From positions 1,088,001 to 1,152,000 of the forward strand of contig CBDDFZ010000002.1 of the NCBI GenBank assembly GCA_965227515.1: DNA of 64,000 nt, written 5' to 3'. This DNA is from Alphaproteobacteria bacterium. GTDB lineage: Bacteria; Pseudomonadota; Alphaproteobacteria; CALKHQ01. Numbering within the stretch: position 1 is the stretch's first letter; each line of letters begins with the position of its first letter. A program made the position numbers and the translations under genes. Positions 42,949 through 60,828 of the stretch are shown here, one piece after another. A model generated the notes under the pieces. It saw only the letters and a list, made by a program, of their open reading frames with translations, did no database searches and had not been told where the DNA came from.

Positions 42949-43008
42949 CGCGTCTTATCTCCTCCTCGGCACAGACCGCGGGCGCATCGCTCCCGCGGGG
43001 CACGAACG

Positions 43009-43129
43009 AAAAAAAACGCTGCGACAAGCGCACATGCCCGAGCGATCTCGGGTACGCACGTGTCGGCAGCGTTGCCGGCGCCCGCCGTTGGGCGCGTTAA
43101 TTGTCTGGGGTGTGGCCGCCTTTAGCCAC
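43009..43129 (-). promoter_or_regulatory. NasT/ANTAR antitermination leader with intrinsic terminator
   Basis: Minus-strand stem-loops with A-N-N-G loops (AAAGGC, AACGGC, AACGCT); the last overlaps the terminator stem AACGCTGC..GCAGCGTT followed by a T run. Confidence 0.85.
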
Positions 43130-43141
43130 GCAATCAGTGCA

Positions 43142-43156
43142 GCAACATCCGTGCCA
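43142..43156 (-). promoter_or_regulatory. Sigma54 (-24/-12) promoter of the nas operon
   Basis: TGGCAC-GGATG-TTGC. Confidence 0.88.
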
Positions 43157-43224
43157 AACCGGACGAATCCGGCAAACTATTGAAGTGCGGGAATTAATTC
43201 GGCTCCAGGTCGGGTGGGCGCGGT

Positions 43225-43259
43225 TGCATGATCTTGTTGCGCTGCACAAGAATCTGGCA
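43225..43259. promoter_or_regulatory. Tandem NtrC-like enhancer sites
   Basis: TGCATGATCTTGTTGCG and TGCACAAGAATCTGGCA, about 70-100 bp upstream of the sigma54 element. Confidence 0.55.
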
Positions 43260-43309
43260 GCGGCTGCCAGCCGCGCATGCATAAGACGCTCTCCGGCAAG
43301 GGCGCCCCG

Positions 43310-44551
43310 TCAGTCGATACCGAGTTCCGTCAGGTAGGCGCGTGCGTCGCGCGGGTCGAAGACGGTGCCGTCGAAGAAGCCATCGGGACCAATGTTCAGC
43401 AAGCCGAGAACGCCTGGGATTTGGGCGCCCTGACTGGCGGCCCCCTCAACCTTCCAGTCGTCGGCCGGCATGTTGATCTCGGCGGCGCTCAAAGCATCTC
43501 GGCACAGGTCCGGGCGGAACACGTCGCGCGCCCTTGCCGCCAGGTCGTCGGACCAGCCCACCTGGCCCCACCGCACCATCTGGGTGAACAGCCAGGTCGC
43601 ATGGCTCTGCCACGGGAAGGTCGCCGCACCCCGCGCGAAGGCGATGTAGTCGCCGATCTGGCGCGGCTCGGCGCCGGCGGTGCGGACCCGGCCCTCCAGC
43701 ACGTCGGCGATGATGTCCGCAGGTACGCCGACCAGGGATTCGCGGGCCAGCAGTTCGGCCAGGGTGCGCCGGTTCGCCGGGTTGTCGGCCCAGATCGCGG
43801 CACGCTGGCAGGCCCGCACCAGGGCCGCCAGTGTGCGCGGGTTGGCGTCGGCCCAGTCCTTGCGCATGCCGAGCGCCTTGTCCGGGCTGCCGCGCCATAT
43901 CTGGGCCGTGGCGGCGACGATCTGGCCGGTGCCGGCGCTGACCGCGAGCGTGTTCCAGGGCTCGCCGGCGCAGAAGCCGTCGACCCGGCCCGAGGCCAGG
44001 GCATCGCCCATCAAGGGTGGCGGCAACACGATGAGTTCGACGTCTCGATCCGGGTCGATGCCGGAGGCCGCCAGCCAGTAGCGCAGCTCGTAATTGTGGC
44101 TGGAGAACGGGTAGACGATGGCGAGCACTGGCTTGGCGCTACCGGCTTCGCGCCGCCGGCGAACGGCGGCCGCCAGTGCCCGCCCGACGGTCTCAGGCGC
44201 ATCCAGCGAGATCGCGCCCCCACCCATCTCAGCGAACAGGGCGTTGCTGACGGTAATGGCGTTACCGCCCGCGCCCAGCATCATCGGCGCCACCATCGGC
44301 TGCTGCAGGTAGTTGATGCCCAGCGTTGCGGCGATCGGCATGCCGGCCAGCATCTGCGCCGCGTCCAGATGGCCGACGAAGATGCGGTCGCGCACGTTCG
44401 CCCACGAGATCTCGCGCACCAGCTCCAGGCGGATGCCTTCCTCGGCCGCGAACCCCAGCGCATCGGCGACCGCGACGACGGCGCAGTCGACCAGCGGGAC
44501 GAAGCCCACCCGCACCACCTTGCGCTCCGGCGGCTGGGCACGCGCGCTCAT
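43310..44551 (-). CDS. nasS: Cytoplasmic nitrate sensor (NrtA-like, no signal peptide)
   Basis: [29 protein letters not shown]; translationally coupled to the ANTAR regulator. Confidence 0.9.
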   Translation of the reverse strand: MSARAQPPERKVVRVGFVPLVDCAVVAVADALGFAAEEGIRLELVREISWANVRDRIFVGHLDAAQMLAGMPIAATLGINYLQQPMVAPMMLGAGGNAITVSNALFAEMGGGAISLDAPETVGRALAAAVRRRREAGSAKPVLAIVYPFSSHNYELRYWLAASGIDPDRDVELIVLPPPLMGDALASGRVDGFCAGEPWNTLAVSAGTGQIVAATAQIWRGSPDKALGMRKDWADANPRTLAALVRACQRAAIWADNPANRRTLAELLARESLVGVPADIIADVLEGRVRTAGAEPRQIGDYIAFARGAATFPWQSHATWLFTQMVRWGQVGWSDDLAARARDVFRPDLCRDALSAAEINMPADDWKVEGAASQGAQIPGVLGLLNIGPDGFFDGTVFDPRDARAYLTELGID

Positions 44552-45147
44552 ACCCGGTCCCCTAACAGGTCGGCCGCCGTGACCAGGCTTTGCGCCACTT
44601 CCACAAGGCGTTGGTTCTGGTTCATGGCATTGCGGCGCAACAGGGCATAGGCCTCCTCCTCGCCGATGTTGCGGGCCTTCATCAGCAAACCCTTGGCGCG
44701 CTCGATCAGCTTGCGCTCGGCAAGCTGGGTGCGCGCATCGTCCAGCTCGCGCCGCAGCCGGCGGAACGCATCGAAGCGGTGGATCGCCATGTCGGCGATG
44801 GTGCGCACTCGTTCCTTCTGCAAGCCGTTGACGACGTAGGCCGACACGCCGGCCTCGATGGCGGCGCGGGTCATGTCGGGGTCGGAGTGGTCGACGAACA
44901 TCCCGACCGGACGGTCGCCGGACCGGCTCGCCCGCAGCACCTGTTCCAGTGCGTCGCGGCTGGGATTCTCGATCGCGATCAGGATGACGTCGGGATCGAT
45001 GGCGCTGACCCGCGCCTCCAGGTTGCGCATATCGGAAATGCGCTCGATCGTGCAGTCGGCGCCCTCGCGCAGGCCCTCCTCGATGATCGAGGCGCGGATC
45101 GGCTCGTCATCTATGATCAGAACCCGCAGGTGAGAGGCTGAGCCCAT
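44548..45147 (-). CDS. nasT: ANTAR-domain antiterminator/response regulator
   Basis: Pseudo-receiver domain with AGVSAYVV; ANTAR motif ERKLIERAKGLLM..EAYALLR..AM. Confidence 0.93.
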   Translation of the reverse strand: MGSASHLRVLIIDDEPIRASIIEEGLREGADCTIERISDMRNLEARVSAIDPDVILIAIENPSRDALEQVLRASRSGDRPVGMFVDHSDPDMTRAAIEAGVSAYVVNGLQKERVRTIADMAIHRFDAFRRLRRELDDARTQLAERKLIERAKGLLMKARNIGEEEAYALLRRNAMNQNQRLVEVAQSLVTAADLLGDRV

Positions 45148-45302
45148 TGCTACCTATCGACCGAACCGAAATGTCGCGCCGGTCGAAGCAATAACCGCGC
45201 CATGGTCGCCGGCCCGGAGCGGCACCTGGATGGCGCGGCCCGTGCATGGGAGCGGTGCAATGAAGATCGACGGTCCAGGCAAGCTGCAATAGCATTGAGC
45301 GC

Positions 45303-46031
45303 ATGAGCGACATCAGAGTTTCACGCGACAAGACCGGGAACGGCCAGCAGAAGCGCACCCGGGCCGAGACGCTGCGCGATGCGCTGATGGACGCCATCAT
45401 CGCCGGGCGCTACCCCCCGGGCCACCGCCTGGACGAGATGGAGCTGGCGGAGGCCTTCGAGGTCTCCCGCACGCCGGTTCGCGAGGCGCTCAAGCAACTG
45501 GCGGCCATGGACATGATCGACCTGCGGCCGCACCGCGGCGCGGTGGTCAGCGATCATCCGCCGGAACGGGTGGCCGAGCTGTTCGAGGCGCTGGCGGAGA
45601 ACGAGGCCGCGTGCGCGCGCCTGGCCGCGATCAAGATGGGAACCAGCGAGCGCGAAGCGCTGGAAAGCCACCATGCCGCCTGCCGCGCCGCCATGCAGGC
45701 CAACCAGATCGACCGCATCTACGACACCAACAAGGCGTTCCACGAGGCGATCTATGCCGGCGCCCACAATGCGTTTCTCGCCGAGCAGGTGCATTCCCTT
45801 CGGCGGCGGCTGGCGCCGTTCACCCGTGCGCAGTTCCGGCGCTCGGGCCGCCCCACCCATTCCGCCGACGAGCACGACGCGGTGATGACGGCGCTGCGCA
45901 ACCGCAGCGGCACGGCGGCGGAGGAAGCCATGCGCCAGCACATCAGGCTGATTGCCCAGACCTACGTCGCATACCAGTTGGAGCTTGGCAGCCAGTCGCT
46001 TCAGGACCTCGTTGTCGCCAAGGAGGCCTGA
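45303..46031 (+). CDS. GntR family regulator (FCD domain), convergent with and overlapping atzF
   Basis: LDEMELAEAFEVSRTPVREAL; NKAFH, EHDAV. Confidence 0.92.
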   Translation: MSDIRVSRDKTGNGQQKRTRAETLRDALMDAIIAGRYPPGHRLDEMELAEAFEVSRTPVREALKQLAAMDMIDLRPHRGAVVSDHPPERVAELFEALAENEAACARLAAIKMGTSEREALESHHAACRAAMQANQIDRIYDTNKAFHEAIYAGAHNAFLAEQVHSLRRRLAPFTRAQFRRSGRPTHSADEHDAVMTALRNRSGTAAEEAMRQHIRLIAQTYVAYQLELGSQSLQDLVVAKEA

Positions 46032-47824
46032 TAGGCGCGCCAGCCGCCGAACGCGGTGATGTCGCGCGCGCCATCCAGGGCCAGCGGCTCACAGATGAAG
46101 CCCTTGACCGCACGGCCGTCGGCCAGCTCCACGCTGCCGATGCCCAGCGGCGCCGGCACGGCGGCGGCGAAGCGGCCGAACGCCTCCGACGACAGGGCAT
46201 AGACCTCCACGTCGATCGCGCGCCCCTGGCCGGGCCCCACCCGCATCAGCCCCGGTTTCGGCGGTGTCGTGCCGTTGAGCGCAAACAGGCGATAGGCATC
46301 CGCCGTGGTGGTCGATGCCTGCAACGTCGCCCCCAATGCCGCCAGTTCGCCGGCCAGCGGCTCGCCGCTCAGGTGGGCGCCGACCACGGCCAGCAGCACG
46401 CCGTCAGTGCTCGCGGTTTGCGACGGTGACGGCAGTTGCTGGCCTGTCGCCCCCAAGGGCAGTCCCGTGGCGCGCTGCCAGCCGCCGCCCAATCGCGCCA
46501 GCGCCGCATCGTGGAAAGCCGGCGCAATGAACGTGACGCCCGCCGGCAATCCGTTCGGCAGGAAACCGTTGGGCAGCGCGATGGCGCTGAGGTCCAGCAG
46601 GTTGACGAAATTGGTATAGGTACCCAGCCGGCTGTTGAGCAGCACCGGCTCCGCAGCCTCTTCGGCGACGGTGTAGATGGTCGGCGACGTTGGCACGAGC
46701 ATGACGTCGATGTCGTGCCAGACATTCGCACAGACCCGCCGCAGGTCCTCGAGCCGATACATGCTCTTGAAAGCGTGGACGGCGGAAATGTCGGCGGCGC
46801 CACCGATGATCTGGCGGGTCACCGGCCACAGGCTGTCGGCATGGCCGGCAATGAAGTCCTCCACCGCCGCCAGCCGTTCGGCGACCCACGGCCCCTGATA
46901 CAGCAGGGCCGCCACCTCGGCGAACGGCGCGAAGTCTATCTCGGTGACGGTTGCTCCGAGCGACCTGGCCCGCGCCGCCGCATCCGCAAACAGGGCCTCG
47001 GTCTCGGCATCGCCATCGAAGAACAGGTCCTGCGGTTTCGGAACGCCGATCTGCAGACCCGACCAGACAAGATCCCCCACGTCCTGCCTGACGCGCGAAT
47101 AGGCATCGGCGGCATCGTACTGGGCCGCGACGGAGAGCACGCGAGACGCATCCTCCGCCGTCAGCGCGAAGATGGAGACGCAGTCCAGCGTGCGGCAGGC
47201 CGGCACAACGCCGGAGCACGAGATCAGGCCGCGGCTGGGCTTCAGCCCCACGATGTTGTTGAAGCCGGCGGGCACCCGGCCGGAGCCCGCGGTGTCGGTG
47301 CCAAAGGCGAAGCTGACCAGGCCGGAGGACACCGCCACCGCCGATCCGGAGCTCGACCCACCGGGCAGATAGTCCGCATCGAACGCGTTGCGGGCGACGC
47401 CATATGGCGTTCGGGTGCCGACCAGGCCGGTCGCGAACTGGTCGAGGTTGGTCTTGCCGACCAGCATGGCGCCGGCCGCGATGAGATGGGCAACGGCGGG
47501 CGCCGTCGCCTCGGCGACATAGGCGAAGTCGGGGCACGCCGCCGTGGTCGTCATGCCCGCCACGTCGATATTGTCCTTCACCGCGAAGGGCACGCCATAG
47601 AGCGGCAGCGCCGCGCGCTCCGCCGGGCCGAGTGCGTCGAGCGCCGCGGCCCGGTCCATGAGCGCCTGGTCGTCCGCACGTGAGATCCAGACCGCGTCGT
47701 CGCCGGCTGCCGCGATGCGCGAGAGGATGTCTGCCGCCACGGTGCCGGGGGATGCCGCGCCGGTCAGATAGCTGCGCTTGAGCGTGGCCAGGTCCAGGCT
47801 CATCGGTGCTTCGCTCACGGTCAT
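46001..47824 (-). CDS. atzF: Allophanate hydrolase
   Basis: Amidase signature KDNIDV, GGSSSGS, GTDTAGSGRVPA; C-domain VVGAHLSG..GGWRAY; alternative start 47803. Confidence 0.95.
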   Translation of the reverse strand: MTVSEAPMSLDLATLKRSYLTGAASPGTVAADILSRIAAAGDDAVWISRADDQALMDRAAALDALGPAERAALPLYGVPFAVKDNIDVAGMTTTAACPDFAYVAEATAPAVAHLIAAGAMLVGKTNLDQFATGLVGTRTPYGVARNAFDADYLPGGSSSGSAVAVSSGLVSFAFGTDTAGSGRVPAGFNNIVGLKPSRGLISCSGVVPACRTLDCVSIFALTAEDASRVLSVAAQYDAADAYSRVRQDVGDLVWSGLQIGVPKPQDLFFDGDAETEALFADAAARARSLGATVTEIDFAPFAEVAALLYQGPWVAERLAAVEDFIAGHADSLWPVTRQIIGGAADISAVHAFKSMYRLEDLRRVCANVWHDIDVMLVPTSPTIYTVAEEAAEPVLLNSRLGTYTNFVNLLDLSAIALPNGFLPNGLPAGVTFIAPAFHDAALARLGGGWQRATGLPLGATGQQLPSPSQTASTDGVLLAVVGAHLSGEPLAGELAALGATLQASTTTADAYRLFALNGTTPPKPGLMRVGPGQGRAIDVEVYALSSEAFGRFAAAVPAPLGIGSVELADGRAVKGFICEPLALDGARDITAFGGWRAYQASLATTRS

Positions 47825-47900
47825 CCCCTTCGTTGTTCCCTCCTCCACGCGTGGCGGCCCGCCCAGCACTGCTGACCCGTCAATCTGCCCACGTGGCGAT

Positions 47901-48056
47901 AGATTGTATGCAATTTGAATACCACGCCGCGATCTCGCGCCGAACCTCGATCTCCACACGTGCCTTGGAAAGCCCTGTAGGGCGCAAGAATGCCCGTATT
48001 TTGTGCGATGCCCGAAGATTGGTCAATTTTGGCCGTCCACAGATTGCATACAATCC
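47901..48056. promoter_or_regulatory. Two GntR-type operators (AGATTGTATGCAATTT 47901..47916; AGATTGCATACAATCC 48041..48056) flanking NtrC-like sites (47991..48025)
   Basis: TTGTATGCAA and TTGCATACAA are reverse complements, each a near-palindrome; TGCCCGTATTTTGTGCG and TGCCCGAAGATTGGTCA lie between them. Confidence 0.65.
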
Positions 48057-48079
48057 AGAAAAAGTCGCCCGCTTCGAGT

Positions 48080-48094
48080 TGGCACGTCGATTGC
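48080..48094 (+). promoter_or_regulatory. Sigma54 promoter of the BMP-ABC/biuH/trtA/atzD operon
   Basis: TGGCAC-GTCGA-TTGC. Confidence 0.85.
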
Positions 48095-48193
48095 TGAGCA
48101 GTTGTCAGAAGTGGATCGGACTGCGGGCGCATGGCGCGCTCATGGCCGGCCGATGGCGCGACAAGCCGCGCTCGGACAGCGACTACGGAGGGG

Positions 48194-49336
48194 ATGATGA
48201 AAGCAACAGGATCGACCCGACATGGCCTCAGCCGCCGCAGCGTGCTGCGCGGTGCCGGCGCGGCGGCAGGCGCCGGCGTTCTTGGCTCGGCCTTGCCGAT
48301 GCGCCGCGCCTACGCGGACGACCTGACCGTCGGCTTTATCTATGTCGGGCCGAAGGACGACTATGGCTACAACCAGGCCCACGCCGAGGGGGCGGCCGCG
48401 ATCAAGGATATCGAGGGCCTGACCCTGGTCGAGGAAGAGAACGTGGCCGAGACCATCGACGTCGAGAAGTCGATGGAGAGCATGATCAATTTCGACGGCG
48501 CGACGCTCCTGTTCCCAACGTCGTTCGGCTATTTCGACCCGCACATGCTGAAGATGTGCGAGTCCTATCCGGACTTGCAGTTCCGCCACTGCGGCGGGCT
48601 GTGGAACGCCGACGCCCACCCCGCCAACGCCGGCTCGTACTTCGGCTATATCGGCATGGGCCAGTACCTGAACGGCATTGTCGCCGGCCACATGTCGCAG
48701 ACCAAGAAGCTGGGCTTCGTCGCCGCCAAGCCGATCCCGCAGGTGCTGCTGAACGTGAACAGCTTCACGCTTGGCGCGCGCAGCGTCGACCCGTCGATCA
48801 CCACCCAGGTGATCTTCACCGGTGAGTGGTCGATGCCGGTCAAGGAGGCGGAGGCAACCAACGCGCTGATCGACCAAGGCGCGGATGTGGTGACCTGCCA
48901 CGTCGACGGTCCGAAGGTGGTGATCGAGACGTCCGAGCGCCGCGGCATCTACACCTGCGGCTACCACGCCAATCAGGCACCGCTGGCGCCCAACGGCTAC
49001 CTGACCGGCGCCGAATGGAATTGGGCCGAAGTCTACAAGATGTTCGTCGAGACCATGATGGCGGGCGAGGCGTTGCCGAACTTCGTGCGCGGCGGCCTGG
49101 CCGAGGGCTTCATCAAGACCAGCCCCTACGGACCCGCGGTGACGCCCGAGGCGGCGGCCCATGCCGACGCGGTGAAAGAAGAGATCATGGCTGGCGGATT
49201 CTCGGTCATCAAGGGCCCGCTCAGCGACAACGAGGGCAACATGGTGGTGGCGGACGGTACCGCGTTCGAGGAGACCGCCATCGAGCTTGAGAGCATGGAC
49301 TACCTGGTCGAGGGCGTCGTCGGCTCGACGAGCTGA
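48194..49336 (+). CDS. BMP family ABC substrate-binding protein with Tat signal
   Basis: SRRSVL twin-arginine motif; GFIYVGP.DD.GYNQAH, TSFGY. Confidence 0.9.
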   Translation: MMKATGSTRHGLSRRSVLRGAGAAAGAGVLGSALPMRRAYADDLTVGFIYVGPKDDYGYNQAHAEGAAAIKDIEGLTLVEEENVAETIDVEKSMESMINFDGATLLFPTSFGYFDPHMLKMCESYPDLQFRHCGGLWNADAHPANAGSYFGYIGMGQYLNGIVAGHMSQTKKLGFVAAKPIPQVLLNVNSFTLGARSVDPSITTQVIFTGEWSMPVKEAEATNALIDQGADVVTCHVDGPKVVIETSERRGIYTCGYHANQAPLAPNGYLTGAEWNWAEVYKMFVETMMAGEALPNFVRGGLAEGFIKTSPYGPAVTPEAAAHADAVKEEIMAGGFSVIKGPLSDNEGNMVVADGTAFEETAIELESMDYLVEGVVGSTS

Positions 49337-49365
49337 CGCGGCGCCCGGCGGATCGGGTCCCGAAG

Positions 49366-50487
49366 ATGGCCGACGCGACGTTCACGCAGGTGACCGGCGC
49401 TGCCACGCCGGGCACGGCACCGTCCGACCGCACGGTCCGCCTGAAGAAGGCGGCCGAGGCGGTGGCGGTGCCGGCGCTTGCCCTCGTCGTGTCCGCCATC
49501 ATCTTCGCCATCTTCCTGGCCGCCCTGGGCCATTCGCCGATCGAGTTCTACGAGCTGATGTTCCAGGGCGGCTTCGGCACCTGGTTCTCGTGGCAGAACA
49601 CGTTGCAGCGCGCCGCGCCGTTCCTGCTGACGGCGCTGTGCGTGGCGGTGCCGGCGCAGCTTGGCATGGTCGTTATCGGCGGCGAAGGGGCATTGGTGCT
49701 AGGGGGCCTCGCCGCCGCCGCCATCGCGATCCCGCTGCAGGGCGCCGACCCTGTGATCGTCCAGATCGGCATGGCGGTGGCGGCGATGGTCCTGGGCGGC
49801 CTGTGGATCGGCCTCGTCGGCGTGCTGCGCCACAAGCGCGGCGTCAACGAGACCATTGCCAGCCTGCTGCTCGCCTACATCGCCATTGCGCTGATGAACC
49901 ATTTCGTCGAAGGGCCGCTGCGCGATCCGGAGAGCCTGAACAAGCCGTCCACCGACCACATCGGCGAGGCCAACATGATGGGCCAGATCCCCGGCATGGA
50001 CGTGCATTGGGGGCTGGTCATCGGCGCGATCGCCTGCGTGCTGCTTTGGGTGTTGATCAGCCGCACCACAATCGGCTTCGCCGCGCGCATGGCCGGCGGC
50101 AACGTGCGCGCCGCATTGTTGCAAGGCCTGCCGGTCGGATGGCTGGTCATCGGCTTCTGCGTCATCGCCGGCGCCTGCGCCGGGCTTGCCGGCATGATCG
50201 AGGTCGCCGCCGTGCACGGCCGCGCCAACGCCTCGCTGATCGCCGGCTACGGCTATACCGGCATCCTGGTCGCGTTCCTGGCCCGCCACAACCCGCTCGC
50301 GATCATCCCGGTCGCGATCCTGTTCGGCGGCATCACCGCGTCGGGCGGCCTGATCCAGCGCCGCATGGACCTGCCGGACGCCACCGTGCTGGTGCTGCAG
50401 GGCGTGATCTTCGTCGTCATCCTGGTCGGCGAGACGCTGTACGGCCGGTTCCGCATCTTCCAACCGAAACGCCTGGACGAGCGCTGA
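49366..50487 (+). CDS. Nucleoside/simple-sugar-type ABC permease 1
   Basis: IGGEGAL, VNETIASL, GYGYTGILVAFL. Confidence 0.9.
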   Translation: MADATFTQVTGAATPGTAPSDRTVRLKKAAEAVAVPALALVVSAIIFAIFLAALGHSPIEFYELMFQGGFGTWFSWQNTLQRAAPFLLTALCVAVPAQLGMVVIGGEGALVLGGLAAAAIAIPLQGADPVIVQIGMAVAAMVLGGLWIGLVGVLRHKRGVNETIASLLLAYIAIALMNHFVEGPLRDPESLNKPSTDHIGEANMMGQIPGMDVHWGLVIGAIACVLLWVLISRTTIGFAARMAGGNVRAALLQGLPVGWLVIGFCVIAGACAGLAGMIEVAAVHGRANASLIAGYGYTGILVAFLARHNPLAIIPVAILFGGITASGGLIQRRMDLPDATVLVLQGVIFVVILVGETLYGRFRIFQPKRLDER

Positions 50488-50490
50488 GCC

Positions 50491-51426
50491 ATGGAAACCG
50501 CCGTAGCCGTCGATATCGGATGGTGGGGGGTGCCGCTGGCGGTGCTGGCCGGCGCGATCCGGGTGTCGACCCCATTCCTGTTCGTCAGCCTGGGCGAGTG
50601 CCTGACCGAGAAGAGCGGGCGCATCAATCTGGGGCTGGAAGGCACCCTGGTGCTGGGCGCGATGTCGGCCTACGCCATCTCCTACGAGACCGGCTCGCCC
50701 TGGCTGGGCACCCTGTTCGCCGGCATCGTCGGCTCGATGTTCGGCGCGCTGCACGGCTATATCTGCAAGTTCCCCAAGGTCAACGACATCGCCATCGGCA
50801 TCGCCTTGATGCTGCTCGGCACCGGTTTGGCGTTCTTCTTCGGCAAGCCCTACATCCAGCCGACCGCGCCGATCCTGCCGGCGATCCCGCTCGGCTGGTG
50901 GTCGGACATCCCGCAGGTGCGTTCGGCCCTCGACATCAACGTGCTGTTCGTCATCGGCATCGCGGTCGCCTTCGTGATGGCCTGGATGTTCCGCAACACG
51001 CGCGTCGGGCTCATCGTGCGGATGACGGGCGACAGCGCGGATGCGGCGCGCGCCATGGGCTATTCGGTCGACATGGTGCGCTTCCTCGCCACCATGGCCG
51101 GCGGCTTCCTGGCCGGCATCGGCGGGGCGTTCCTGTCGCTCTACTACCCCGGCAGCTGGAACGAGGGCCTGTCGTCGGGCCAGGGCCTGATGGCGGTGGC
51201 ACTGGTGATCTTCGCGCGCTGGGACCCGAAGCTCTGTTTCCTGGCGGCACTGCTGTTCGGCGGCGCCGGCGCGCTGGGCCCGGCCCTGCAGTCGGTCGGC
51301 GTGTCCGAAGGGTACTACCTGTTCAACGCAGCGCCCTACGTGCTGACGCTGGCGATCATGATCCTGACCGTGTCGCCGCGCCGCAATCTGGCCGGCGCAC
51401 CCGGCGAATTGTCGATTACCAAGTGA
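50491..51426 (+). CDS. Nucleoside/simple-sugar-type ABC permease 2
   Basis: EKSGRINLGLEG, GQGLMAVALV, PYVLT. Confidence 0.9.
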   Translation: METAVAVDIGWWGVPLAVLAGAIRVSTPFLFVSLGECLTEKSGRINLGLEGTLVLGAMSAYAISYETGSPWLGTLFAGIVGSMFGALHGYICKFPKVNDIAIGIALMLLGTGLAFFFGKPYIQPTAPILPAIPLGWWSDIPQVRSALDINVLFVIGIAVAFVMAWMFRNTRVGLIVRMTGDSADAARAMGYSVDMVRFLATMAGGFLAGIGGAFLSLYYPGSWNEGLSSGQGLMAVALVIFARWDPKLCFLAALLFGGAGALGPALQSVGVSEGYYLFNAAPYVLTLAIMILTVSPRRNLAGAPGELSITK

Positions 51427-51453
51427 CCGGCACCAAATGAGGGAGATGGCCGA

Positions 51454-52458
51454 ATGAGCGGACTGGGCGGGCTGAACAAGTCACCGGGCGGCGTGGTGGT
51501 AGGGCTGGTCCAGCTCCAGCTTCCGGTGGTGGACACGCCCGATCAGCTCGCGGCGCAAGCCGACAAGATCGTCGCCATGGTCGCCAAGGCACGGCGCGGC
51601 ATGCCGACCATGGACCTGGTCGTGTTCCCCGAATACGCGCTGCACGGGCTCTCCATGGCCACCGACCCGGCGATCATGTGCAGCCTGGACGGGCCGGAGG
51701 TCGCCGCGTTCAAGAAGGCCTGCGTCGATAACGCGATCTGGGGCTGCTTCTCGATCATGGAGGCGAATCCCGACGGCAACCCCTACAACTCCGGCCTGAT
51801 CATCGACGATACCGGCGAGATCCGGCTCTACTACCGCAAGCTCCACCCCTGGGTGCCCGTCGAGCCGTGGGAGCCCGGCGACCTGGGCATATCGGTCTGC
51901 GACGGGCCGAACGGCAGTCGTATCGGGCTGATCATCTGCCACGACGGCATGTTCCCGGAGATGGCGCGGGAGTGCGCGTACAAGGGTGCGGAGATCATGA
52001 TCCGCACCGCCGGCTACACCGCGCCGATCCGCCATGCCTGGCAAGTGACCAACCAGTCCAACGCCTTCTGCAACCTGATGGCCACCGCCAGCGTGTGCAT
52101 GTGCGGCAGCGACGGCACGTTCAACTCCATGGGCGAGGCGATGGTGTGCAATTTCGACGGCACAATCATGGTCGAGGGCAACGGGCTCGCCGACGAGATC
52201 GTCACCGCCGAGCTCAGGCCCGACCTGATCCGCGAGGCGCGGCGCGAATGGGCGGTGGAGAACAATATCTACCAGTTCGGCCACCGCGGATTCACCGCCG
52301 TGCTCGGCGGCGCGCAGGACTGTCCCTACACCTACATGCACGACCTTGCGGCGGGCCAGTACCGGCTGCCGTGGGAGGACGAGGTCAAGGTGACCGACGG
52401 GACGTCCTGCGGTTTTGCGGTGCCGAACCGCACCTACAAGCAAGCGATGAGCGAGTGA
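51454..52458 (+). CDS. amiF: Formamidase (nitrilase superfamily)
   Basis: Catalytic E-K-C in [16 protein letters not shown] (formamidase-type CHD); MSGLGGLNK start. Confidence 0.9.
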
Positions 52459-52472
52459 ACGGAGGCGCACCG

Positions 52473-53156
52473 GTGCCGGAGACCTACATTTCCGCCGACC
52501 CCTATCCCTGGCCCTACAACGGCGACCTGAGGCCGGAAAACACCGCGCTGGTGGTGATCGACATGCAGACCGACTTCTGCGGCGCGGGCGGCTATGTGGA
52601 TTCGATGGGCTACGACCTGTCGCTGACCCGCGCGCCGATCGAGCCGATCAGGAAGGTGCTCGGCGCGATGCGATCCAAGGGTTACCACATCTTCCACACG
52701 CGTGAGGGGCACCGGCCCGACCTCGCCGACCTGCCCGCCAACAAGCGCTGGCGCTCCCAACGCATCAATGCCGGCATCGGCGACCCCGGCCCGTGCGGGC
52801 GCATCCTGGTGCGCGGCGAGCCTGGCTGGGACATCATCCCGGAACTGGCGCCGCTTGACGGCGAGCCGGTCATCGACAAGCCCGGCAAGGGCACGTTCTG
52901 CGCCACCGATTTCGACATGATGCTGCGCCAGCGCGGCATCGAGAATATCGTGCTGACCGGCATCACTACCGACGTGTGCGTGCACACCACCATGCGCGAG
53001 GCCAACGACCGGGGTTATGAGTGCGTGCTGCTGGAGGACTGTTGCGGTGCCACCGACCGCAACAACCACCTCGCCGCGATCCAGATGATCAAGATGCAGG
53101 GCGGCGTATTCGGCAGTGTCTCGAACGCCGACGACTTCGTGGCCGGCCTGCCGTGA
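52473..53156 (+). CDS. biuH: Biuret hydrolase (cysteine hydrolase/isochorismatase family)
   Basis: [48 protein letters not shown] typical of BiuH; GGAGG RBS before GTG. Confidence 0.9.
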
Positions 53157-54718
53157 GCACCGCCGCCACAACAGCCTCTGGCACCGGCGCCATCGGCATC
53201 GAGACGATCTCGGTCACCAAGCGGTTCGGCCCGTTCACCGCGCTGGATGCGGTGTCGATGCAGGTCGCACCCGGCGAGATGCACGCGCTGTTGGGCGAGA
53301 ACGGCGCCGGCAAGTCGACGCTGGTCAAGTGCGTGATGGGCTACTACCACGCCGACGACGGCAATATCGTCATCGACGGGCGCGAGCGCGAGATCGCCAA
53401 CCCCCGCGACGCCCACAGCCACGGGCTGGGCATGGTCTATCAGCACTTCACGCTGGTGCCGTCGATGACCGTTGCCGAGAACCTGGTGATGGCCCGTGCC
53501 GACGTGCCGACGGTGATCGACTGGAAGCGCGAGTTCGAGGCGCTGGAGGCGTTTCTGGCGCGGATGCCGTTCAAGGTGCCGCTGCGCAAGGCGGTGGCCG
53601 ATCTCGCGGCCGGTGAGCGTCAGAAGACCGAGATCCTGAAGCAGCTCTATCTGGAGCGCCGGTTCCTGATCCTGGACGAGCCCACGTCGGTGCTGACGCC
53701 GGGCGAGGCCGACGAGATGCTGGGCCTGCTGCGCGGGCTGACCCGCGACGGCGTGCTGTCGATCCTGATGATCACCCACAAGTTCCGCGAGGTGATGGGC
53801 TATGCCGACGCGGTGACGGTGCTGCGGCGCGGCAAGCTCGCCGGCACCGGCGCGGTCGCCGACCTGACCCGCGAGGATCTGGCCGCGATGATGATCGGCA
53901 GCGCCACCCTGCCGGAGAGTGCCGCGCGCGAGGGCACGCCCGCCGCGCGCACCATGCTGACGCTGAGCGGGCTGACGGCAGAGGATGCCTCCGGCCACAA
54001 GGGCATCGATATCGCCGACCTGAAGGTCCATGCCGGCGAGGTCGTCGGTATCGCCGGTGTCTCCGGCAACGGCCAGAAGGAACTGGTCGAGGTGATCGGC
54101 GGCCAGCGCCCGCCGACCGGCGGTGCGATGCGGGTGGAGGACGCGGACTATGGCGCCACCCGGCGCCAGGCCCAGGCGCTGAAGGTGCGCTGCCTGCCCG
54201 AGGAGCCGCTGCGCAATGCCTGCGTGCCGCGCATGTCGGTGGCCGACAACCTTTCGTTCCGCGAATTCGACCGCACCGGTAAGACAAACGGCAAGGCCAA
54301 TGGCGCGGCCCGGCCCGCGATGTGGCTGAACCGGGGGCGGATCGGCCGCCGCGCCGCCGAACTGATCGGACGCTACCAGATCAAGACGGCGTCGAAGGAG
54401 TCGGAGATCGCAACCCTTTCCGGCGGCAACGTGCAGCGCACGGTGCTGGCGCGCGAGCTTTCCGGCGAGGTGCATCTGCTGATCGCCGCCAACCCGTGCT
54501 TCGGGCTGGATTTCGCGGCGGTTGCCGAGATCCGCGGCCAGATCATGGCCGCACGCAACCGAGGCGTCGGCGTGCTGCTGATCAGCGAGGATCTGGACGA
54601 GTTGTTCGAGCTGTCCGACCGCATCCTGGTGATGTCGGAAGGCAAGATCGTCTACGAGACGCCGATCGAGACCGCCGACGTGCAGACCATCGGCACCCAC
54701 ATGGCCGGGCATCATTAG
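53153..54718 (+). CDS. ABC ATPase (two-domain, nucleoside/sugar type)
   Basis: [33 protein letters not shown]. Confidence 0.92.
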
Positions 54719-54740
54719 ATCATGTCAGCTTTCGCTGAAG

Positions 54741-54823
54741 TCGGCACCGGCCCGCTCCCCCACCCGACCACCCATCAATCATACTGTCGTTGGGCGGCCG
54801 GCTGGGCATGCGGGCCTGTGCCA
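54741..54823. repeat. GCACCGGCCC-type palindromic repeat, copy 2
   Basis: TCGGCACCGGCCCGCTCCCCCACCCGACCACCCA...TGGGCGGCCGGCTGGGCATGCGGGCCTGTGCC. Confidence 0.75.
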
Positions 54824-54849
54824 AAGCGAAAGACAGGCCAGAGAACCTT

Positions 54850-55515
54850 ATGACCGCCGTTTCCGCCCAGCCTTTCGACTTCGACCTGGACCCCGCGCGC
54901 GTGGCGCTGATCGTCATCGACATGCAGCGCGACTTCATCGAGTCTGGCGGCTTTGGCGCCAGCTTGGGCAACGACGTCAGCCTGCTTGCCGCCATCGTGC
55001 CGGCAGTGAAGCGGGCGATCGAGGCGTTCCGGGCACATGGCCTGCCCATCGTCCACACCCGCGAGTGCCACCGTCCCGACCTTTCCGACTGCCCGCCGGC
55101 CAAGCGCGAGCGCGGCAGCCCGAGCCTGCGCATCGGCGATCCGGGACCGATGGGCCGCGTGCTGATTGCCGGCGAACCGGGGGCGGAGATCGTGCCCGAC
55201 CTGCTGCCGGCCGACGGCGAGATCGTTATCGACAAGCCCGGCAAGGGCGCGTTCTACGCCACCGACTTGACGGCGGCGCTGGAAGCGCGCGGCATCCGCC
55301 AACTCGTTTTCACCGGCGTCACCACGGAGGTGTGCGTGCAGACCACCATGCGCGAAGCCAACGACCGTGGCTATGAGTGCCTGTTGCTGGAGGACGGGAC
55401 CGAGAGCTACTTCCCGGCCTTCAAGGCGGCGGCGATTGAGATGATCCGCGCCCAGGGCGCCATCGTCGGGTGGACCACCGATACCGACACGCTGATCGCG
55501 GCTCTAGATGCCTGA
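54850..55515 (+). CDS. trtA: Triuret hydrolase-like cysteine hydrolase
   Basis: [41 protein letters not shown] distinguish it from BiuH. Confidence 0.82.
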
Positions 55516-55861
55516 ACCTTTTTCTTATAGCGGCTTGATCAATGGCGGCTGGCGCGCGCTGGAGTTCGCGCCGTTCCGCGACGGTGTCGAGATCCATCGT
55601 CTCTATGCGGAGGGCGACGACGGGCCGGCGGCGGCGCTGCTGCGCTACGCCCCCGGCGCACAGGTGCCGCGCCACCTGCATCCCGGCTACGAGCACGTGA
55701 TCGTGCTGGAAGGGTCGCAGCGCGATGCCAACGGCCTGCACCAGACCGGCGACGTTGTCGTCAACACGCCGGGCAGCAGCCACGACGTGACCAGCGAAGA
55801 AGGCTGCGTTGTGCTGGTGATCTGGGGCCGGCCGGTGCGGTTTGAAGAGGCGGAAGCATGA
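55508..55861 (+). CDS. Single-domain cupin (ChrR-like) of unknown function
   Basis: [32 protein letters not shown]; overlaps both neighbours. Confidence 0.85.
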
Positions 55862-56937
55862 GGCGCGCCGACGTGGTGTGCCTGCCCGCAGCCGGGCCGG
55901 ACGACACCTCGGCAATCGAGGCCGCCGTTGCCGTGGGCGACATCGACCCCGCGGCCATCGTCGCCATCCTCGGCAAGACCGAGGGCAATGGGTGCGTCAA
56001 CGATTTCACCCGCGGCTACGCGGTGCAGAACCTGAAGGCCATGCTCGCACGATACATTCGCGCGCCGGACGTGGACCGTGTCGCCATGGTCATGTCCGGC
56101 GGCACCGAGGGCGGGTTGTCGCCGCACTGGTTGGTGTTCTGTGCATACGATGCCGGTCGGACGTTCGCACCGAACGGCGGCGCGCTGGCCGTGACCGTCG
56201 CCCGCTCGCAAGAGCTCCGGCCTGAGGAAATCGGCCGCCGGGCGCAGGTCGATGCGGTGGCCGAAGCCGTTCGCGCGGCGATGGCGGATGCCGGCATCGC
56301 CGACGCCGGCGACGTGCACTACGTCCAGGTCAAATGCCCGCTGCTGACCGCCGCCAAGGTTGCCGATGCGGCGGTGCGCAGCAAGACCGCGGCCACCGCC
56401 GACACTCTGAAATCGATGGGGCTGTCGCGCGGCGCATCGGCGCTCGGCGTGGCCGTGGCGTTGGGCGAAATTCCGGAAAGCGCGGTCACCGATGGCATGA
56501 TCGGCACCGACACGGCGTTCTGGTCGAGCCGGGCAAGCTGCTCGGCGGGAGTCGAACTCGACGACTGCGAAATCGTGCTGATGGGCAACAGCGCGGGCTG
56601 GACCGGGCCGCTGCGCATCGCCCACGACGTGATGGCGGACGCTATCGACACCGCCGCCGCCGGCCGGGTGTTGCAGACCCTGGCCCTGCACCCCGGCTCG
56701 GACCATCTCCAGGCGGTGCTGGCCAAGGCCGAGGCCGCGCCCGATGGCCGTATTCGCGGCCGCCGGCACACCATGCTCGACGACAGCGACATTTCCTCCA
56801 CCCGCCATGCCCGCGCGCTGGTTGGGGGCGCCCTGGCCGGTTTCATCGGCCGCACCGACCTGTTCGTATCCGGCGGCGCGGAGCACCAGGGGCCGGCCGG
56901 CGGCGGCCCGATCGCCATGATTGCCTGCGCGCCATAG
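55858..56937 (+). CDS. atzD: Cyanuric acid amidohydrolase (AtzD/barbiturase family)
   Basis: GKTEGNGCVNDFTR, MSGGTEG, QVKCPLL, SRASCSAG, SGGAEHQGP; Arg in SRGASALG and HARA favours cyanuric acid hydrolase. Confidence 0.88.
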   Translation: MRRADVVCLPAAGPDDTSAIEAAVAVGDIDPAAIVAILGKTEGNGCVNDFTRGYAVQNLKAMLARYIRAPDVDRVAMVMSGGTEGGLSPHWLVFCAYDAGRTFAPNGGALAVTVARSQELRPEEIGRRAQVDAVAEAVRAAMADAGIADAGDVHYVQVKCPLLTAAKVADAAVRSKTAATADTLKSMGLSRGASALGVAVALGEIPESAVTDGMIGTDTAFWSSRASCSAGVELDDCEIVLMGNSAGWTGPLRIAHDVMADAIDTAAAGRVLQTLALHPGSDHLQAVLAKAEAAPDGRIRGRRHTMLDDSDISSTRHARALVGGALAGFIGRTDLFVSGGAEHQGPAGGGPIAMIACAP

Positions 56938-57222
56938 GGACCAAACGGGTTGCGGCACGACCGCTATTCCGGTGCGTTGTGCCGGCTCGCCGATGCATCC
57001 GGCATCGCGGTCGCCCATTGGTCCCTGGGCACGCCTGCCGCTCCGACAATCAGGCCCGCAACGCTGACCTTGCGGCGTTTCTCAGCAGCCTGCTCGGCGG
57101 CCGACAGCAAGCTATCGCGACCAGCGACCCGCACGATCAAACAGATCGCAGTCCAAGTGGCGCAGACACCTCGAATGTCGGTGGATGATCGCGAGCTTCG
57201 CCGGATCGAGCGGCCGGCGCGA

Positions 57223-57530
57223 TCAGGGTCTGGCGGAGATGTTGTCCGCCACAATCAGATGCGGAAACAGCGCATAGGACTGGAAGCACATCGCGGTATC
57301 GCGCCGCTCGTGCGGGGCGGTTGTCACGTCCATATCGCCGATTTCGATCCTGCCCCTGGTCGGGGCGTGGAAACCGGCGATGGTCTTCAGCAGGATGGTC
57401 TTGCCGCACCCCGGCGGCCCAAGCAGGGTCACGAACTCGCCGGGCGCCACGGTCAACGACACGTCCGACAGCGCCTCGAACCCGTCGTCGAAAATCTTGG
57501 TAACGGCGATGACCTTCAGCGCGGACAAGG
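57223..57530 (-). pseudogene. Truncated remnant of a PotA/MalK-like ABC ATPase
   Basis: [15 protein letters not shown] and [13 protein letters not shown], then a stop; no signature motif or Walker B found downstream. Confidence 0.75.
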
Positions 57531-57659
57531 CTCCGACCCGCAAGAGTGGTAGGCACGACCGAGGCCACGTCCGGTGCAAGGACCGACGGGTGAAACGGCG
57601 CTTCAGGCGTGATTAGCCGCGCGGCGGGTCGCTTTCGTGAAGGTTCGGCGAAATATTTG

Positions 57660-58348: not shown

Positions 58349-60811
58349 CTAGACCTGATACTCTTTCGACTTGAATGTCAGGTGCCGGGTGACCTCCGGC
58401 GCGTTGGCGATCTTGCGGATGTCACCCCAGGTCTGCTTGTAGTTGGGGATAATCAACTCGTTGACCCCTTCGGAGATCACGTTCCCCATCACGCCGGTCG
58501 GGTAGGCGAACAGCATGAAGGTCTCATTCGGCTTGGCGGTCGGCGTCGGGTAGGCCATGGCCTGGGTGGCGCCGTTGGCATTGTAGATCTCGACCAGGTC
58601 GCCCTCGCCAATGCCCAGTTCTGCCATGTCATCGGGGTTCATCTCGATGAACGGCAGCGGCCAGCGGTCCATCACGAAGTCGTTCTGCTGGTCCAGATAG
58701 GCCGACTGCCAGACGTGGTTGGCGCGCCCGTTGTTGATCAGGAAGCGGTATGCTGCCTGCTCCTCGGCCTTGCCGGGAGCCTGCAGGCCACGCCACTGAG
58801 TGGACGCGAAAACCGCCCTGCCGTCTTCGCCACCGAAGACCCCATCGGCATAGAGGCGCTTGGTGCCGACGATGGTGTCGCCGTCCAGGCCCGTCGCTGG
58901 CTCCTGGAACCCGTTGGTCCCCATCGCACGCAACCGGTCGTAGGTGACGAACTCGCCGCCGCCCGCATTGGCGTGATAGCCGTCCATGAAGGCGTCTTCC
59001 TCGGTCGCCCAGTCATAGCCCTGGAACTTGGCCGCGGTCTCGCTGTCGCCAGCGGCCGCGAACGCGCGCTCCAACGCCTGCGCCAACCTGGCTGCTATCA
59101 GGCAGTCGGGCAACGCCTGCCCTGGCGGGTCCATGTACCGCTCGGTCAGGCGCATCCTGCGCTCGCCGTTCATCGACGTCAGGTTCATCTCACCCGACGT
59201 CGCCGCCGGCAGCACGACATGGCTGTACTCGCCAATTTTGGTCGGCACGATATCGACGTCGACCGAGAACAGGCCGCCCGCGCGGATCGCGCCCATGATC
59301 GCCTCGATCATGCCCTCGCGATCGCCATAGGGCACCGACGACATGGCATCGCGCACCATGTCGGTGCGGCGCTTATAGGCGCGCTTGAAGGCGGACGCAT
59401 TCAGCGTGGTCTTGAAGTGATCGCACGCCCAGATGTGATGGACGCCGCCCTGGCCGTCGATCAGTAGCTGGTCGACATAGGGTGCCGGCCGGCCGATGAA
59501 GCCGTCCGCCGGCCGGACATAGCCTTCCTGGTGACCGCCCATGCGCACGCAGCCGCCGCCGGGCCGGCCGATGTTGCCGGTCGCCAGCGCCACGTTCACC
59601 AGCGCCTGGTTGGTGCGGTAGTTGTCGTTGCCCCAGATCAGGCCCTTCTCGTAACAGAACATGGTGCGCCGCCGGGCGCCGCCCTCCTTGGGCTCGGCGA
59701 TCCAGTGCGCCGCCTGCTGGATCTGGTCGACGGTGAGCCCGGTAATCTCCGCGGCCTCTTCCAACGTGGTGCGGTTGTCGGCGACCGCCGCATCGAAATT
59801 GCTGGTCGAGGCCTCGATGAAGTCGCTGTCGGTCCAGCCCTGGTCGGCGATGTAGGTGAACAGCGCGTTGAACAGCGCCAGGTCGGTGCCGGAGTTGATG
59901 GCGAGGTGCAGCACGTTGTCCGCGCCCGCCGCCGTCTCGCAGGCATTGACGGTTACCGTCCGCCGTGGATCGACGATCACGATCCGGCCCGCCGCGTGCG
60001 GCTCGTCAGGCAGTTCCTCGCCCTTCAGACCCAGAGAGGTGCCGCGCAGGTTCGGAATCCAGTGGTTGAGGAAATAGTTGGTCTGAGTCTCCAGGGCATT
60101 GGTGCCGACGGCGAAGATGGTGTCGGCCAGTTCCGCATCCTGGTAGCAGTTGTTGAGTTCGCCCACACCCATGTCGCGGCTGCCGTGGACCTCCGAATTG
60201 TAGGCCGGCCGGTTGTGGATGCGGATGTTGCGCACCTTCATGCTCTCGAAATAGAGCTTGCCGGTCGCCCAGGTGTTCTCGTAGCCGCCGCCGGCCCCGC
60301 CATGGTCGAAGGCGGAGACGAACAGCCCGTCCTCGCCCTGTTCGGCAATGACCCGGCGGGTCACCTCAGCAACCAGGTCGATGGCGTCGTCCCATGAGGT
60401 CGGGTGCATGCCGGAATAGCGCCAGACCAGCGGATTGGTCAGCCGCTGCATCTGGGTGCCGGTGGTCTCCGAATAGCTGAGCTCGCCCTGGCGCGCGCCA
60501 CGGATGGAGCCCAGGCCCGAATTGACCTCGCACTCATGGTCCGGCTGGATGACCATGTGCACGTCACGGCCATCCTGCTTGACGATGTTGTACATCGACG
60601 GTGAGTACCAAGCCGTCGTTTCCGGCGACTGCTGCTCGCCGAGATCGACACCATAGTAGTTGCCGCCGGGATCGCTGGTGCCCTGGCGGTTGACCGGCCA
60701 GGTCAGCGCCTTGTAGCCGCAACCGACGATGCAGTAGTGGCAGGTCACGTTGCGGACCTCGGCGTCGGCCGGCGGAATCGGAAGGCGGTCGATATTGCGC
60801 TTGTATGCCAT
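58349..60811 (-). CDS. aioA: Arsenite oxidase large subunit
   Basis: MAYKRNIDRLPIPP, CHYCIVGC [3Fe-4S] motif with Ser in GLGSIRG, HNRPAYNSE, YEKG, GGHQEG. Confidence 0.97.
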   Translation of the reverse strand: MAYKRNIDRLPIPPADAEVRNVTCHYCIVGCGYKALTWPVNRQGTSDPGGNYYGVDLGEQQSPETTAWYSPSMYNIVKQDGRDVHMVIQPDHECEVNSGLGSIRGARQGELSYSETTGTQMQRLTNPLVWRYSGMHPTSWDDAIDLVAEVTRRVIAEQGEDGLFVSAFDHGGAGGGYENTWATGKLYFESMKVRNIRIHNRPAYNSEVHGSRDMGVGELNNCYQDAELADTIFAVGTNALETQTNYFLNHWIPNLRGTSLGLKGEELPDEPHAAGRIVIVDPRRTVTVNACETAAGADNVLHLAINSGTDLALFNALFTYIADQGWTDSDFIEASTSNFDAAVADNRTTLEEAAEITGLTVDQIQQAAHWIAEPKEGGARRRTMFCYEKGLIWGNDNYRTNQALVNVALATGNIGRPGGGCVRMGGHQEGYVRPADGFIGRPAPYVDQLLIDGQGGVHHIWACDHFKTTLNASAFKRAYKRRTDMVRDAMSSVPYGDREGMIEAIMGAIRAGGLFSVDVDIVPTKIGEYSHVVLPAATSGEMNLTSMNGERRMRLTERYMDPPGQALPDCLIAARLAQALERAFAAAGDSETAAKFQGYDWATEEDAFMDGYHANAGGGEFVTYDRLRAMGTNGFQEPATGLDGDTIVGTKRLYADGVFGGEDGRAVFASTQWRGLQAPGKAEEQAAYRFLINNGRANHVWQSAYLDQQNDFVMDRWPLPFIEMNPDDMAELGIGEGDLVEIYNANGATQAMAYPTPTAKPNETFMLFAYPTGVMGNVISEGVNELIIPNYKQTWGDIRKIANAPEVTRHLTFKSKEYQV

Positions 60812-60828
60812 GACAGATCCTCCCTCGC

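Follow-up and report, generated by a model that had tools for sequence, protein, structure and literature searches.

A bacterial pathway for the degradation of cyanuric acid, triuret and biuret has been established, while there is still debate about the compounds that it serves in nature. Here we consider a gene cluster of this pathway in the genome of an alphaproteobacterial lineage, CALKHQ01 (assembly GCA_965227515.1), which occupies positions 45303-56937 of a 64,000-nucleotide stretch of contig CBDDFZ010000002.1 (contig positions 1,088,001 to 1,152,000, forward strand); this whole stretch is referred to below as the window, and all coordinates are those of the window. Between the genes of an importer and the gene of the biuret hydrolase BiuH, the cluster contains a gene for an AmiF-type formamidase. 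In the sampled Pseudomonadota, this formamidase is found almost only beside BiuH, and its substrate comes from no known step of the pathway, which is a clue to a further class of compounds handled by such operons.

The genes were identified using open reading frame (ORF) calls, Pfam domains, NCBIfam models with curated cut-offs and sequence searches of the PDB. From the binding protein to AtzD, they form a single tightly packed unit on the + strand. The unit starts with the BMP-family periplasmic binding protein of an ATP-binding cassette (ABC) importer (48194-49336, +, PF02608; the ORF is open from 48131, and GGAGG precedes the ATG at 48194), which is followed by ABC permease 1 (49366-50487, +, PF02653), ABC permease 2 (50491-51426, +, PF02653), the AmiF-type formamidase of the nitrilase superfamily (51454-52458, +, NF009803), the biuret hydrolase BiuH, an isochorismatase-like cysteine hydrolase (52455-53156, +, NF050097), the ABC ATPase with two nucleotide-binding domains (53153-54718, +, PF00005 twice), a TrtA-like hydrolase of the isochorismatase family, which is a probable triuret hydrolase as judged by PDB matches (54850-55515, +, ORF open from 54790), a small metal-binding cupin of 117 residues (55508-55861, +, PF12973) and the cyanuric acid amidohydrolase AtzD (55858-56937, +, NF052395). 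The stop codon of AmiF and the GTG start of BiuH overlap in a GTGA sequence, as do the stop of BiuH and the GTG start of the ATPase; the cupin gene overlaps both adjoining genes, and the stretch of about 130 nucleotides before the TrtA-like gene is the sole sizeable gap within the unit. Divergent from this unit is the gene of the allophanate hydrolase AtzF (46001-47824, -, TIGR02713; ORF open to 47959, likely start ATG 47824), on which the gene of a GntR/FCD-family transcription regulator, a probable local repressor, converges (45303-46031, +, PF00392 and PF07729). All eleven genes that an earlier note had named from the letters of the sequence are present at 45303-56937, with the divergent atzF and the GntR regulator correctly placed, as seen from ORF strands and domains. 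That note had also reported the lack of a mobile element and of upper atrazine genes; as to the former, none of the 18 flanking ORFs scanned (33-64 kb) has a transposase or integrase domain, and as to the latter, no search was aimed at atzA, atzB and atzC. The locus lies on the second contig of a two-contig, 5.5-Mb assembly.

A cluster with this gene set has been studied before. When a plasmid collection was searched with the BiuH protein, the search pointed to pRL10, a plasmid of Rhizobium johnstonii 3841 (formerly R. leguminosarum bv. viciae), the strain of the BiuH characterization and crystal structure (PMC5806882). According to the annotation, the gene order in pRL10 is GntR, BMP binding protein, permease, permease, formamidase, BiuH, atzD, ATPase, cysteine hydrolase and cupin, that is, the gene set of the window, and in both cases a nitrate ABC transporter is encoded next door. 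The GntR gene flanks not only the pRL10 cluster but also related loci. The two clusters differ in that AtzD is encoded between BiuH and the ATPase in pRL10 but is the last gene in the window, in that no atzF is adjacent in pRL10 whereas in the window it diverges from the operon, and in the replicon, which is a symbiosis plasmid in one case and the second contig of the assembly in the other. Judging by gene content, the locus is a member of the same kind as the studied pRL10 biuH/atzD cluster, formamidase included, and as such is not new. Hence, what the earlier note said of parts of the gene context, namely, that they are known, holds for the whole gene set. More distant likenesses are found in two other systems. 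The triuret pathway of Herbaspirillum sp. BH-1 (TrtA, TrtB, BiuH, AtzF; PMC7948467) shares with the window the TrtA-like/BiuH pair and AtzF. The atzDGEHF operon of Pseudomonas sp. ADP (PMC6219798) likewise encodes homologues of AtzD and AtzF and acts on cyanuric acid, but there carboxybiuret is converted via AtzEG and AtzH to dicarboxyurea and then to allophanate (PMC6219798); the Pseudomonas operon is without BiuH, TrtA, an importer and a formamidase, and the window is without an AtzH-like gene.

The AmiF protein of the locus looks like an orthodox formamidase by its sequence. It scores 573 bits with the NF009803 equivalog model (cut-off 406), being the sole gene in the genome above this cut-off, and 231 bits with the model of the aliphatic amidase AmiE, below the cut-off of 427. 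Over its full length, the protein matches the crystallized formamidases of Bacillus cereus (5G3O, 372 bits) and Helicobacter pylori (2DYU, 340 bits), and its FPEY, YRKL and ICHDG segments align with those of both enzymes; these segments presumably hold the Glu/Lys/Cys catalytic triad of AmiF. The AmiF proteins of other genomes, both BiuH-linked and stand-alone, are 76-85% identical to the protein of the window and are interleaved on a tree that largely follows taxonomy. The AmiF genes of H. pylori and B. cereus are stand-alone nitrogen-acquisition genes. Unlike these (2DYU, 5G3O), the AmiF of the window is translationally coupled to BiuH in an importer operon.

The BiuH of the locus, in turn, looks like an orthodox biuret hydrolase, with 417.7 bits on NF050097 (cut-off 370), 439 bits with 6AZO, a structure of BiuH from R. 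leguminosarum, and 81% identity to the pRL10 enzyme, which hydrolyses biuret to allophanate (PMC5806882). The latter enzyme has the catalytic triad Asp36/Lys142/Cys175 and binds biuret via Lys145, Thr171 and Gln215, with Gln215 binding the distal amide (PMC5806882). When aligned using pRL10 BiuH numbering, all 79 BiuH-type sequences, the window's included, retain D36, K142, K145, T171 and C175, and 77 of the 79 retain Gln215, whether or not AmiF is present. For the TrtA-like hydrolase, the best PDB matches are 6XIX, 6XJ4 and 6XJE (295 bits), compared to 230 and 222 bits for BiuH structures, and its 268 bits on the BiuH model NF050097 are below the cut-off. We take 6XIX and 6XJ4 to be structures of TrtA, in keeping with their release alongside 6XJM, the BiuH entry of the TrtA paper. 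Three substitutions (pRL10 BiuH numbering) set the TrtA class apart from BiuH, namely, Tyr47 to Phe (46/46 sequences), Ile170 to Val (46/46) and Val218 to Ile (43/46), where the 46 TrtA-class sequences are the 54850-55515 protein of the window, itself carrying F47, V170 and I218, and 45 proteins from related loci. These residues could serve as a simple discriminator of the TrtA class and are candidate pocket positions; in the TrtA paper, the emphasis is on the position of Q202, not on its identity (PMC7948467).

The remaining pathway enzymes are no less typical. With 523 bits on the NF052395 equivalog (cut-off 360) and scores of 399 (4NQ3) down to 328 bits against five structures of cyanuric acid hydrolases, versus 262 bits against the barbiturase 5HWE, AtzD is, by these scores, a canonical cyanuric acid hydrolase. 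AtzF scores 804 bits on TIGR02713 (cut-off 511), contains the PF01425 and PF21986 domains (Amidase and AH_C) and matches 4GYR with 600 bits. Among proteins of solved structure, the binding protein is closest to AtzT (6PI5, 209 bits), which, according to the abstract of its description, held guanine and binds 2-hydroxyatrazine.

The transporter/hydrolase operon is preceded by a sigma-54 -24/-12 promoter, TGGCACGTCGATTGC (48080-48094, +), which exactly matches TGGCAC-N5-TTGC and is located 100 nucleotides before the ATG of the binding protein, in line with the earlier note, which had called the locus sigma-54-driven. The window contains three exact motifs of this type against 0.24 expected, a number reached in none of 100 shuffles, and each of the three faces an operon. 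At the equivalent relative position, the motif is found in 29 of the 65 related loci with enough upstream sequence for motif checks, the pRL10 cluster included. The genome encodes both RpoN (404 bits, cut-off 277) and NtrC (684 bits). No NtrC binding site was recognized, and the sole activator gene in the window (61524-62852) adjoins arsenite-oxidase genes. Within the region between atzF and the binding-protein gene, there are two candidate GntR operators, neither assigned to a strand. Copy 1, the near-palindrome ATTGTATGCAAT (47903-47914), overlaps the -12 part of a weak, possible sigma-54-like site that faces atzF (TGGTATTCAAATTGC, 47910-47924, -, two mismatches to the consensus). Copy 2, ATTGCATACAAT (48043-48054), is the reverse complement of copy 1 and lies 26 nucleotides before the -24 element of the operon promoter. 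The pattern TTG[TC]AT[GA]CAA has only two matches in the 64-kb window, both in this intergenic region, and 14 of the 65 related loci have it in front of the binding-protein gene, mostly with an adjacent GntR gene. We take the two ATTGYATRCAAT sites to be probable GntR operators. A scan of 45000-57600 for sigma-70 promoters and terminators revealed nothing above chance.

By homology to characterized enzymes, and with its sigma-54 promoter and probable GntR gating, the locus is very probably a ureide-scavenging operon, which is probably induced by nitrogen limitation. The BMP-type ABC importer, a kin of purine- and triazine-binding proteins, would take up small planar ureides. Inside the cell, AtzD would open the ring of cyanuric acid and TrtA would deamidate triuret, both reactions yielding carboxybiuret, which would lose CO2 to give biuret; BiuH would then turn biuret into allophanate, which AtzF, encoded divergently, would split into ammonia and CO2. 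Transcription would proceed from the sigma-54 promoter, probably gated by the local GntR protein via the two operator sites. This chain of reactions follows the known chemistry of the cyanurate/triuret/biuret pathway, as given in the legend to Fig. 1 of PMC7948467. As had been claimed before, the known steps yield no formamide: hydrolysis of cyanurate, triuret or biuret cannot produce it because every carbon in these compounds is a carbonyl of the urea type and no redox enzyme is encoded in the operon. Hence a question arises: what does a formamidase do in such an operon?

To assess the linkage of AmiF with BiuH, one genome per species was scanned for AmiF relatives, and the 80 closest loci were kept and searched with all proteins of the window. 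BiuH is encoded directly downstream of AmiF in 52 of these 80 loci (in 51 of the 75 with at least 900 nucleotides there) and in 33 of the 43 complete loci, that is, those with 9-kb flanks on both sides. The 33 complete AmiF-BiuH loci contain a transporter directly upstream in 30 cases, a TrtA-class gene in 20, AtzF in 14, the cupin in 9 and AtzD in 5, so that AmiF, BiuH and the transporter are the core of the module. AmiF-BiuH loci span Alpha-, Beta- and Gammaproteobacteria, Cyanobacteria and one genome of Chloroflexota; AmiF loci without BiuH are mostly cyanobacterial. The neighbours of stand-alone AmiF genes include a P450, an amidohydrolase, GGDEF/EAL proteins and a nitrate-type binding protein, with no recurrent partner among them.

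The linkage was also scored, by family cut-offs, in two samples of 401 genomes each, one drawn from the class and the other from the phylum; since related sampled genomes are not independent, the counts are given without a P value. Of the sampled genomes, only about 5-6% contain BiuH. In the class sample, BiuH was found in 20 genomes and AmiF in 7, with all seven AmiF genes abutting BiuH; in the phylum sample, AmiF was found in 12 genomes, all of them among the 23 with BiuH. When the window's own genome is excluded, all 17 AmiF genomes of both samples carry BiuH, and in 16 of the 17 the two genes are at most 8 kb apart. Thus the linkage of amiF, which the earlier note had named as the weak point of its proposal should it prove sporadic, is not sporadic. 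Nor is the position of AmiF fixed: in the 11 other AmiF genomes of the phylum sample, the gene sits in the gap between permease 2 and BiuH (6 genomes), after the ATPase (1), 0.5-4.7 kb before the binding-protein gene (3) or on another contig (1). The occurrence of AmiF in three gene orders argues for selection rather than for one frozen insertion. Five betaproteobacterial and unclassified metagenome contigs (L015, L016, L050, L059 and L070) carry AmiF with BMP importer genes and no BiuH nearby, L070 keeping only a TrtA-class gene; in four of the five genomes behind these contigs, a different contig encodes a BiuH- or TrtA-like protein.

Within the literature searched, neither how strongly AmiF is associated with BiuH nor what the formamidase does appears to have been described. 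The paper on the BiuH structure mentions the cluster, with the string 'formamid' absent from it (PMC5806882), and the string 'formam' is absent from the TrtA paper (PMC7948467). No paper linking formamidase and biuret was found in the literature searched, the scope of which did not extend to supplements and some primary pathway papers; the pRL10 locus tags pRL100350 to pRL100355 are not mentioned there, and 'formylurea' occurs only in the TrtA paper (PMC7948467).

We tentatively suggest, at somewhat less than even confidence, that the role of AmiF is to finish the breakdown of formyl-ureides such as formylurea and perhaps 1-formylbiuret. In shape, these compounds are close to biuret, and the importer would admit them as well. 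With the terminal amide taken off as ammonia by TrtA or BiuH, N-formylcarbamate would be left, from which loss of CO2 would yield formamide, to be hydrolysed by AmiF to formate and ammonia. A precedent for this type of reaction is presumably provided by the guanylurea hydrolase GuuH of the isochorismatase family, which converts guanylurea to guanidine, although GuuH is a different paralogue with a different substrate. In chemistry of the GuuH type, the terminal amide is taken off X-NH-CO-NH2 and loss of CO2 leaves X-NH2; by analogy, formylurea would give formamide. More directly, formylurea is the second-best substrate of TrtA, which frees ammonia from it at 0.07 U/mg as compared to 24 U/mg for triuret (PMC7948467, Table 2); CO2 and formamide would be the expected co-products. 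A serial action of the two enzymes would also explain the minimal module of transporter, AmiF and BiuH without AtzF because these two enzymes would free both nitrogens of formylurea. Furthermore, since AtzT binds, by the same abstract, guanine and 2-hydroxyatrazine, ring-sized ligands should fit the binding protein better than formamide. Three further possibilities were considered and discarded. An endogenous origin of formamide from histidine breakdown finds no counterpart in the genome, where no formimidoylglutamase is above the cut-off (best score 129.6 bits versus 229); a changed specificity of BiuH in AmiF loci is ruled out by the constancy of its active-site residues with or without AmiF; and a different transporter in AmiF loci is ruled out for the one close pair of loci compared (L100 and L103, see below).

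Several points weigh against the formyl-ureide proposal. The rate of TrtA with formylurea, as tabulated, is only 0.3% of that with triuret (PMC7948467), and the release of formamide by the enzymes of the locus or their relatives is a predicted step only. Turnover of formylurea by BiuH would be a side activity because the active site is kept, including Gln215, the residue for the distal amide of biuret, a group absent from formylurea. TrtA is no commoner with AmiF (20/33 loci) than without it (9/13). Besides, AmiF is dispensable: it is absent from 13 of the 20 BiuH genomes of the class sample and from 11 of the 23 of the phylum sample, and in 10 of the 13 AmiF-less loci of the class sample BiuH comes straight after permease 2 in an otherwise unchanged operon. 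Two loci from one genus, L100 with AmiF and L103 without it, share 91-92% DNA identity over a stretch of about 20 kb. What separates them is a clean indel of 1,060 bp that corresponds precisely to the AmiF gene, located after permease 2 and before BiuH; so clean an indel in near-identical loci means that AmiF is an optional cassette, with which the transporter remains unchanged. Finally, the L015, L016 and L059 contigs carry AmiF and the transporter with no BiuH or TrtA nearby.

The points on the dispensability of AmiF speak, at the same time, for the principal alternative, namely, that AmiF acts in parallel to the ureide pathway, scavenging environmental formamide and sharing with the operon only its nitrogen-limitation control and its inheritance. 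The formamide would come, for example, from fungal cyanide hydratase or from histidine breakdown in other microbes and would enter by diffusion or via the same importer. An enzyme of this kind would be expected to be optional, as AmiF is with its clean presence or absence in loci 91-92% identical and its occurrence in 17 of the 41 BiuH genomes of both samples, and it could do without BiuH and TrtA, as in L015, L016 and L059. It would also leave the active site of BiuH the same regardless of AmiF, and would itself be the same enzyme everywhere, as suggested by the interleaving on the tree of AmiF proteins from both contexts, 76-85% identical. However, co-regulation alone predicts that AmiF should turn up in other nitrogen-regulated operons, whereas in 16 of the 17 sampled genomes it is within 8 kb of BiuH, and in three gene orders. 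The stand-alone AmiF genes, mostly cyanobacterial, lack a recurrent partner; of the five genomes with hydrolase-less AmiF contigs, four carry a BiuH- or TrtA-like gene elsewhere; and AtzT, to which the binding protein is closest among solved structures, takes rings of the size of purines or triazines, a poor fit for the three heavy atoms of formamide. On balance, we consider scavenging of free formamide to be the less likely of the two readings, though the main rival.

The source of formamide proposed in the earlier note was a ring-opening branch, in which AtzD would act on 5-azauracil, or on oxonate after its decarboxylation, to give formylbiuret, and BiuH and TrtA would lead from there to formylurea and formamide. 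This route is a special case of the serial breakdown of formyl-ureides. It is in keeping with the joint presence of AtzD and AmiF in the window and in pRL10, with the relation of the binding protein to a triazine/purine-binding protein and with the plausibility of oxidized purine fragments as natural substrates. As a general reason for the presence of AmiF, however, it fails, since only 5 of the 33 complete AmiF-BiuH loci, and 6 of all 72 related loci, contain AtzD, and AmiF is present independently of AtzD; in addition, the AtzD of the window scores as a canonical cyanuric acid hydrolase (523 bits against the cut-off of 360), with barbiturase more distant. We regard such a branch as improbable. 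Equally improbable is that AmiF acts on a small amide other than formamide, for example a by-product of the pathway, under a misleading family name: while the name rests on homology, the 573 bits on the formamidase equivalog model, the full-length alignment to two crystallized formamidases with the catalytic segments kept and the lack of a diverged AmiF subgroup, BiuH-linked and stand-alone proteins being interleaved, all argue otherwise, as does the narrow range of the characterized AmiF enzymes, which are not known to accept much besides formamide.

Coming back to the formyl-ureide proposal, it can be extended to the notion that, in the BiuH/TrtA importer operon, which is widespread, AmiF marks an undescribed branch for formyl-ureides, with substrates that would arise when nucleobases and urate are broken down by oxidation or by light; in this broader form it is a possibility that we put forward with some reserve. 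If such a branch exists, the natural substrates of these operons would be oxidized fragments of nucleobases, not fertilizer impurities, and AmiF in Pseudomonadota would be essentially an enzyme of ureide catabolism. If, instead, AmiF merely scavenges free formamide, the finding is an ordinary one.

A subgroup of the minimal AmiF-BiuH importer operons (L025, L026, L032, L042, L044, L049, L055, L066 and L087) has additional genes. A 2-oxoglutarate (2OG)-Fe(II) oxygenase with DIOX_N and 2OG-FeII_Oxy domains is encoded beside the binding-protein gene, and in most of the subgroup a CDA-type zinc deaminase is encoded, either immediately behind the ATPase or a few kilobases upstream; in L055, the deaminase occurs without the oxygenase. 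The oxygenase and the deaminase hint at an oxidized, deaminated heterocycle as the substrate precursor. As an AmiF-specific partner, the oxygenase had to be rejected: it occurs in AmiF loci in 9 cases out of 9, but the set comprises 59 loci with AmiF versus 13 without it, and the association is not significant.

The cupin has a His-x-His-x3-Glu ... His metal site, in which H56, H58, E62 and H92 are invariant in all 21 sequences, and its predicted structure has a predicted local distance difference test score (pLDDT) of 94. A Foldseek search of the PDB with this structure returned only generic small cupins (the C-terminal domain of ChrR, DddK, dioxygenases), and therefore no function was assigned from the fold. 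Possibly, the cupin is a decarboxylase for carboxy-ureides; by its position alone, it is a candidate for TrtB, the carboxybiuret decarboxylase, for which no library model of that name gave a match and whose family is not named in the literature searched, supplements excluded. Among the 72 related loci (L008-L107), 21 contain the ChrR-like cupin and 10 an AtzH-like/DUF3225 protein, none contains both, and either gene is often located after the TrtA-class gene; the cupin is present in 5 of the 6 AtzD-carrying loci, and no AtzH-like protein was found in the genome of the window. The cupin and the AtzH-like proteins may be non-homologous alternatives for the step of carboxy-ureide decarboxylation.

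As for the surroundings of the locus, it is preceded by a nitrate-assimilation island on the - strand (33058-45147), which includes nasA, nirD, nirB, the nrt ATPase, permease and binding protein (nrtABC), a nasS-like gene and nasT, encoding an ANTAR response regulator; the second exact sigma-54 motif of the window (43142-43156, -) faces the nrtA-like gene. Downstream of the operon there is a nitroreductase gene and then the arsenite-oxidase genes with their two-component system (58349-63960, -), namely, an arsenite-oxidase-like large subunit with Rieske_3 and molybdopterin domains and a Rieske subunit, preceded by the genes of a sigma-54 activator and a histidine kinase. The third exact sigma-54 motif (61403-61417, -) is inside the listed Rieske ORF, and the true start of this ORF may therefore be later. 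Just after atzD, a 118-residue ORF (57223-57579, -) covers only positions 1-79 of the 137 of an ABC ATPase domain and is probably the remnant of a truncated transporter gene.

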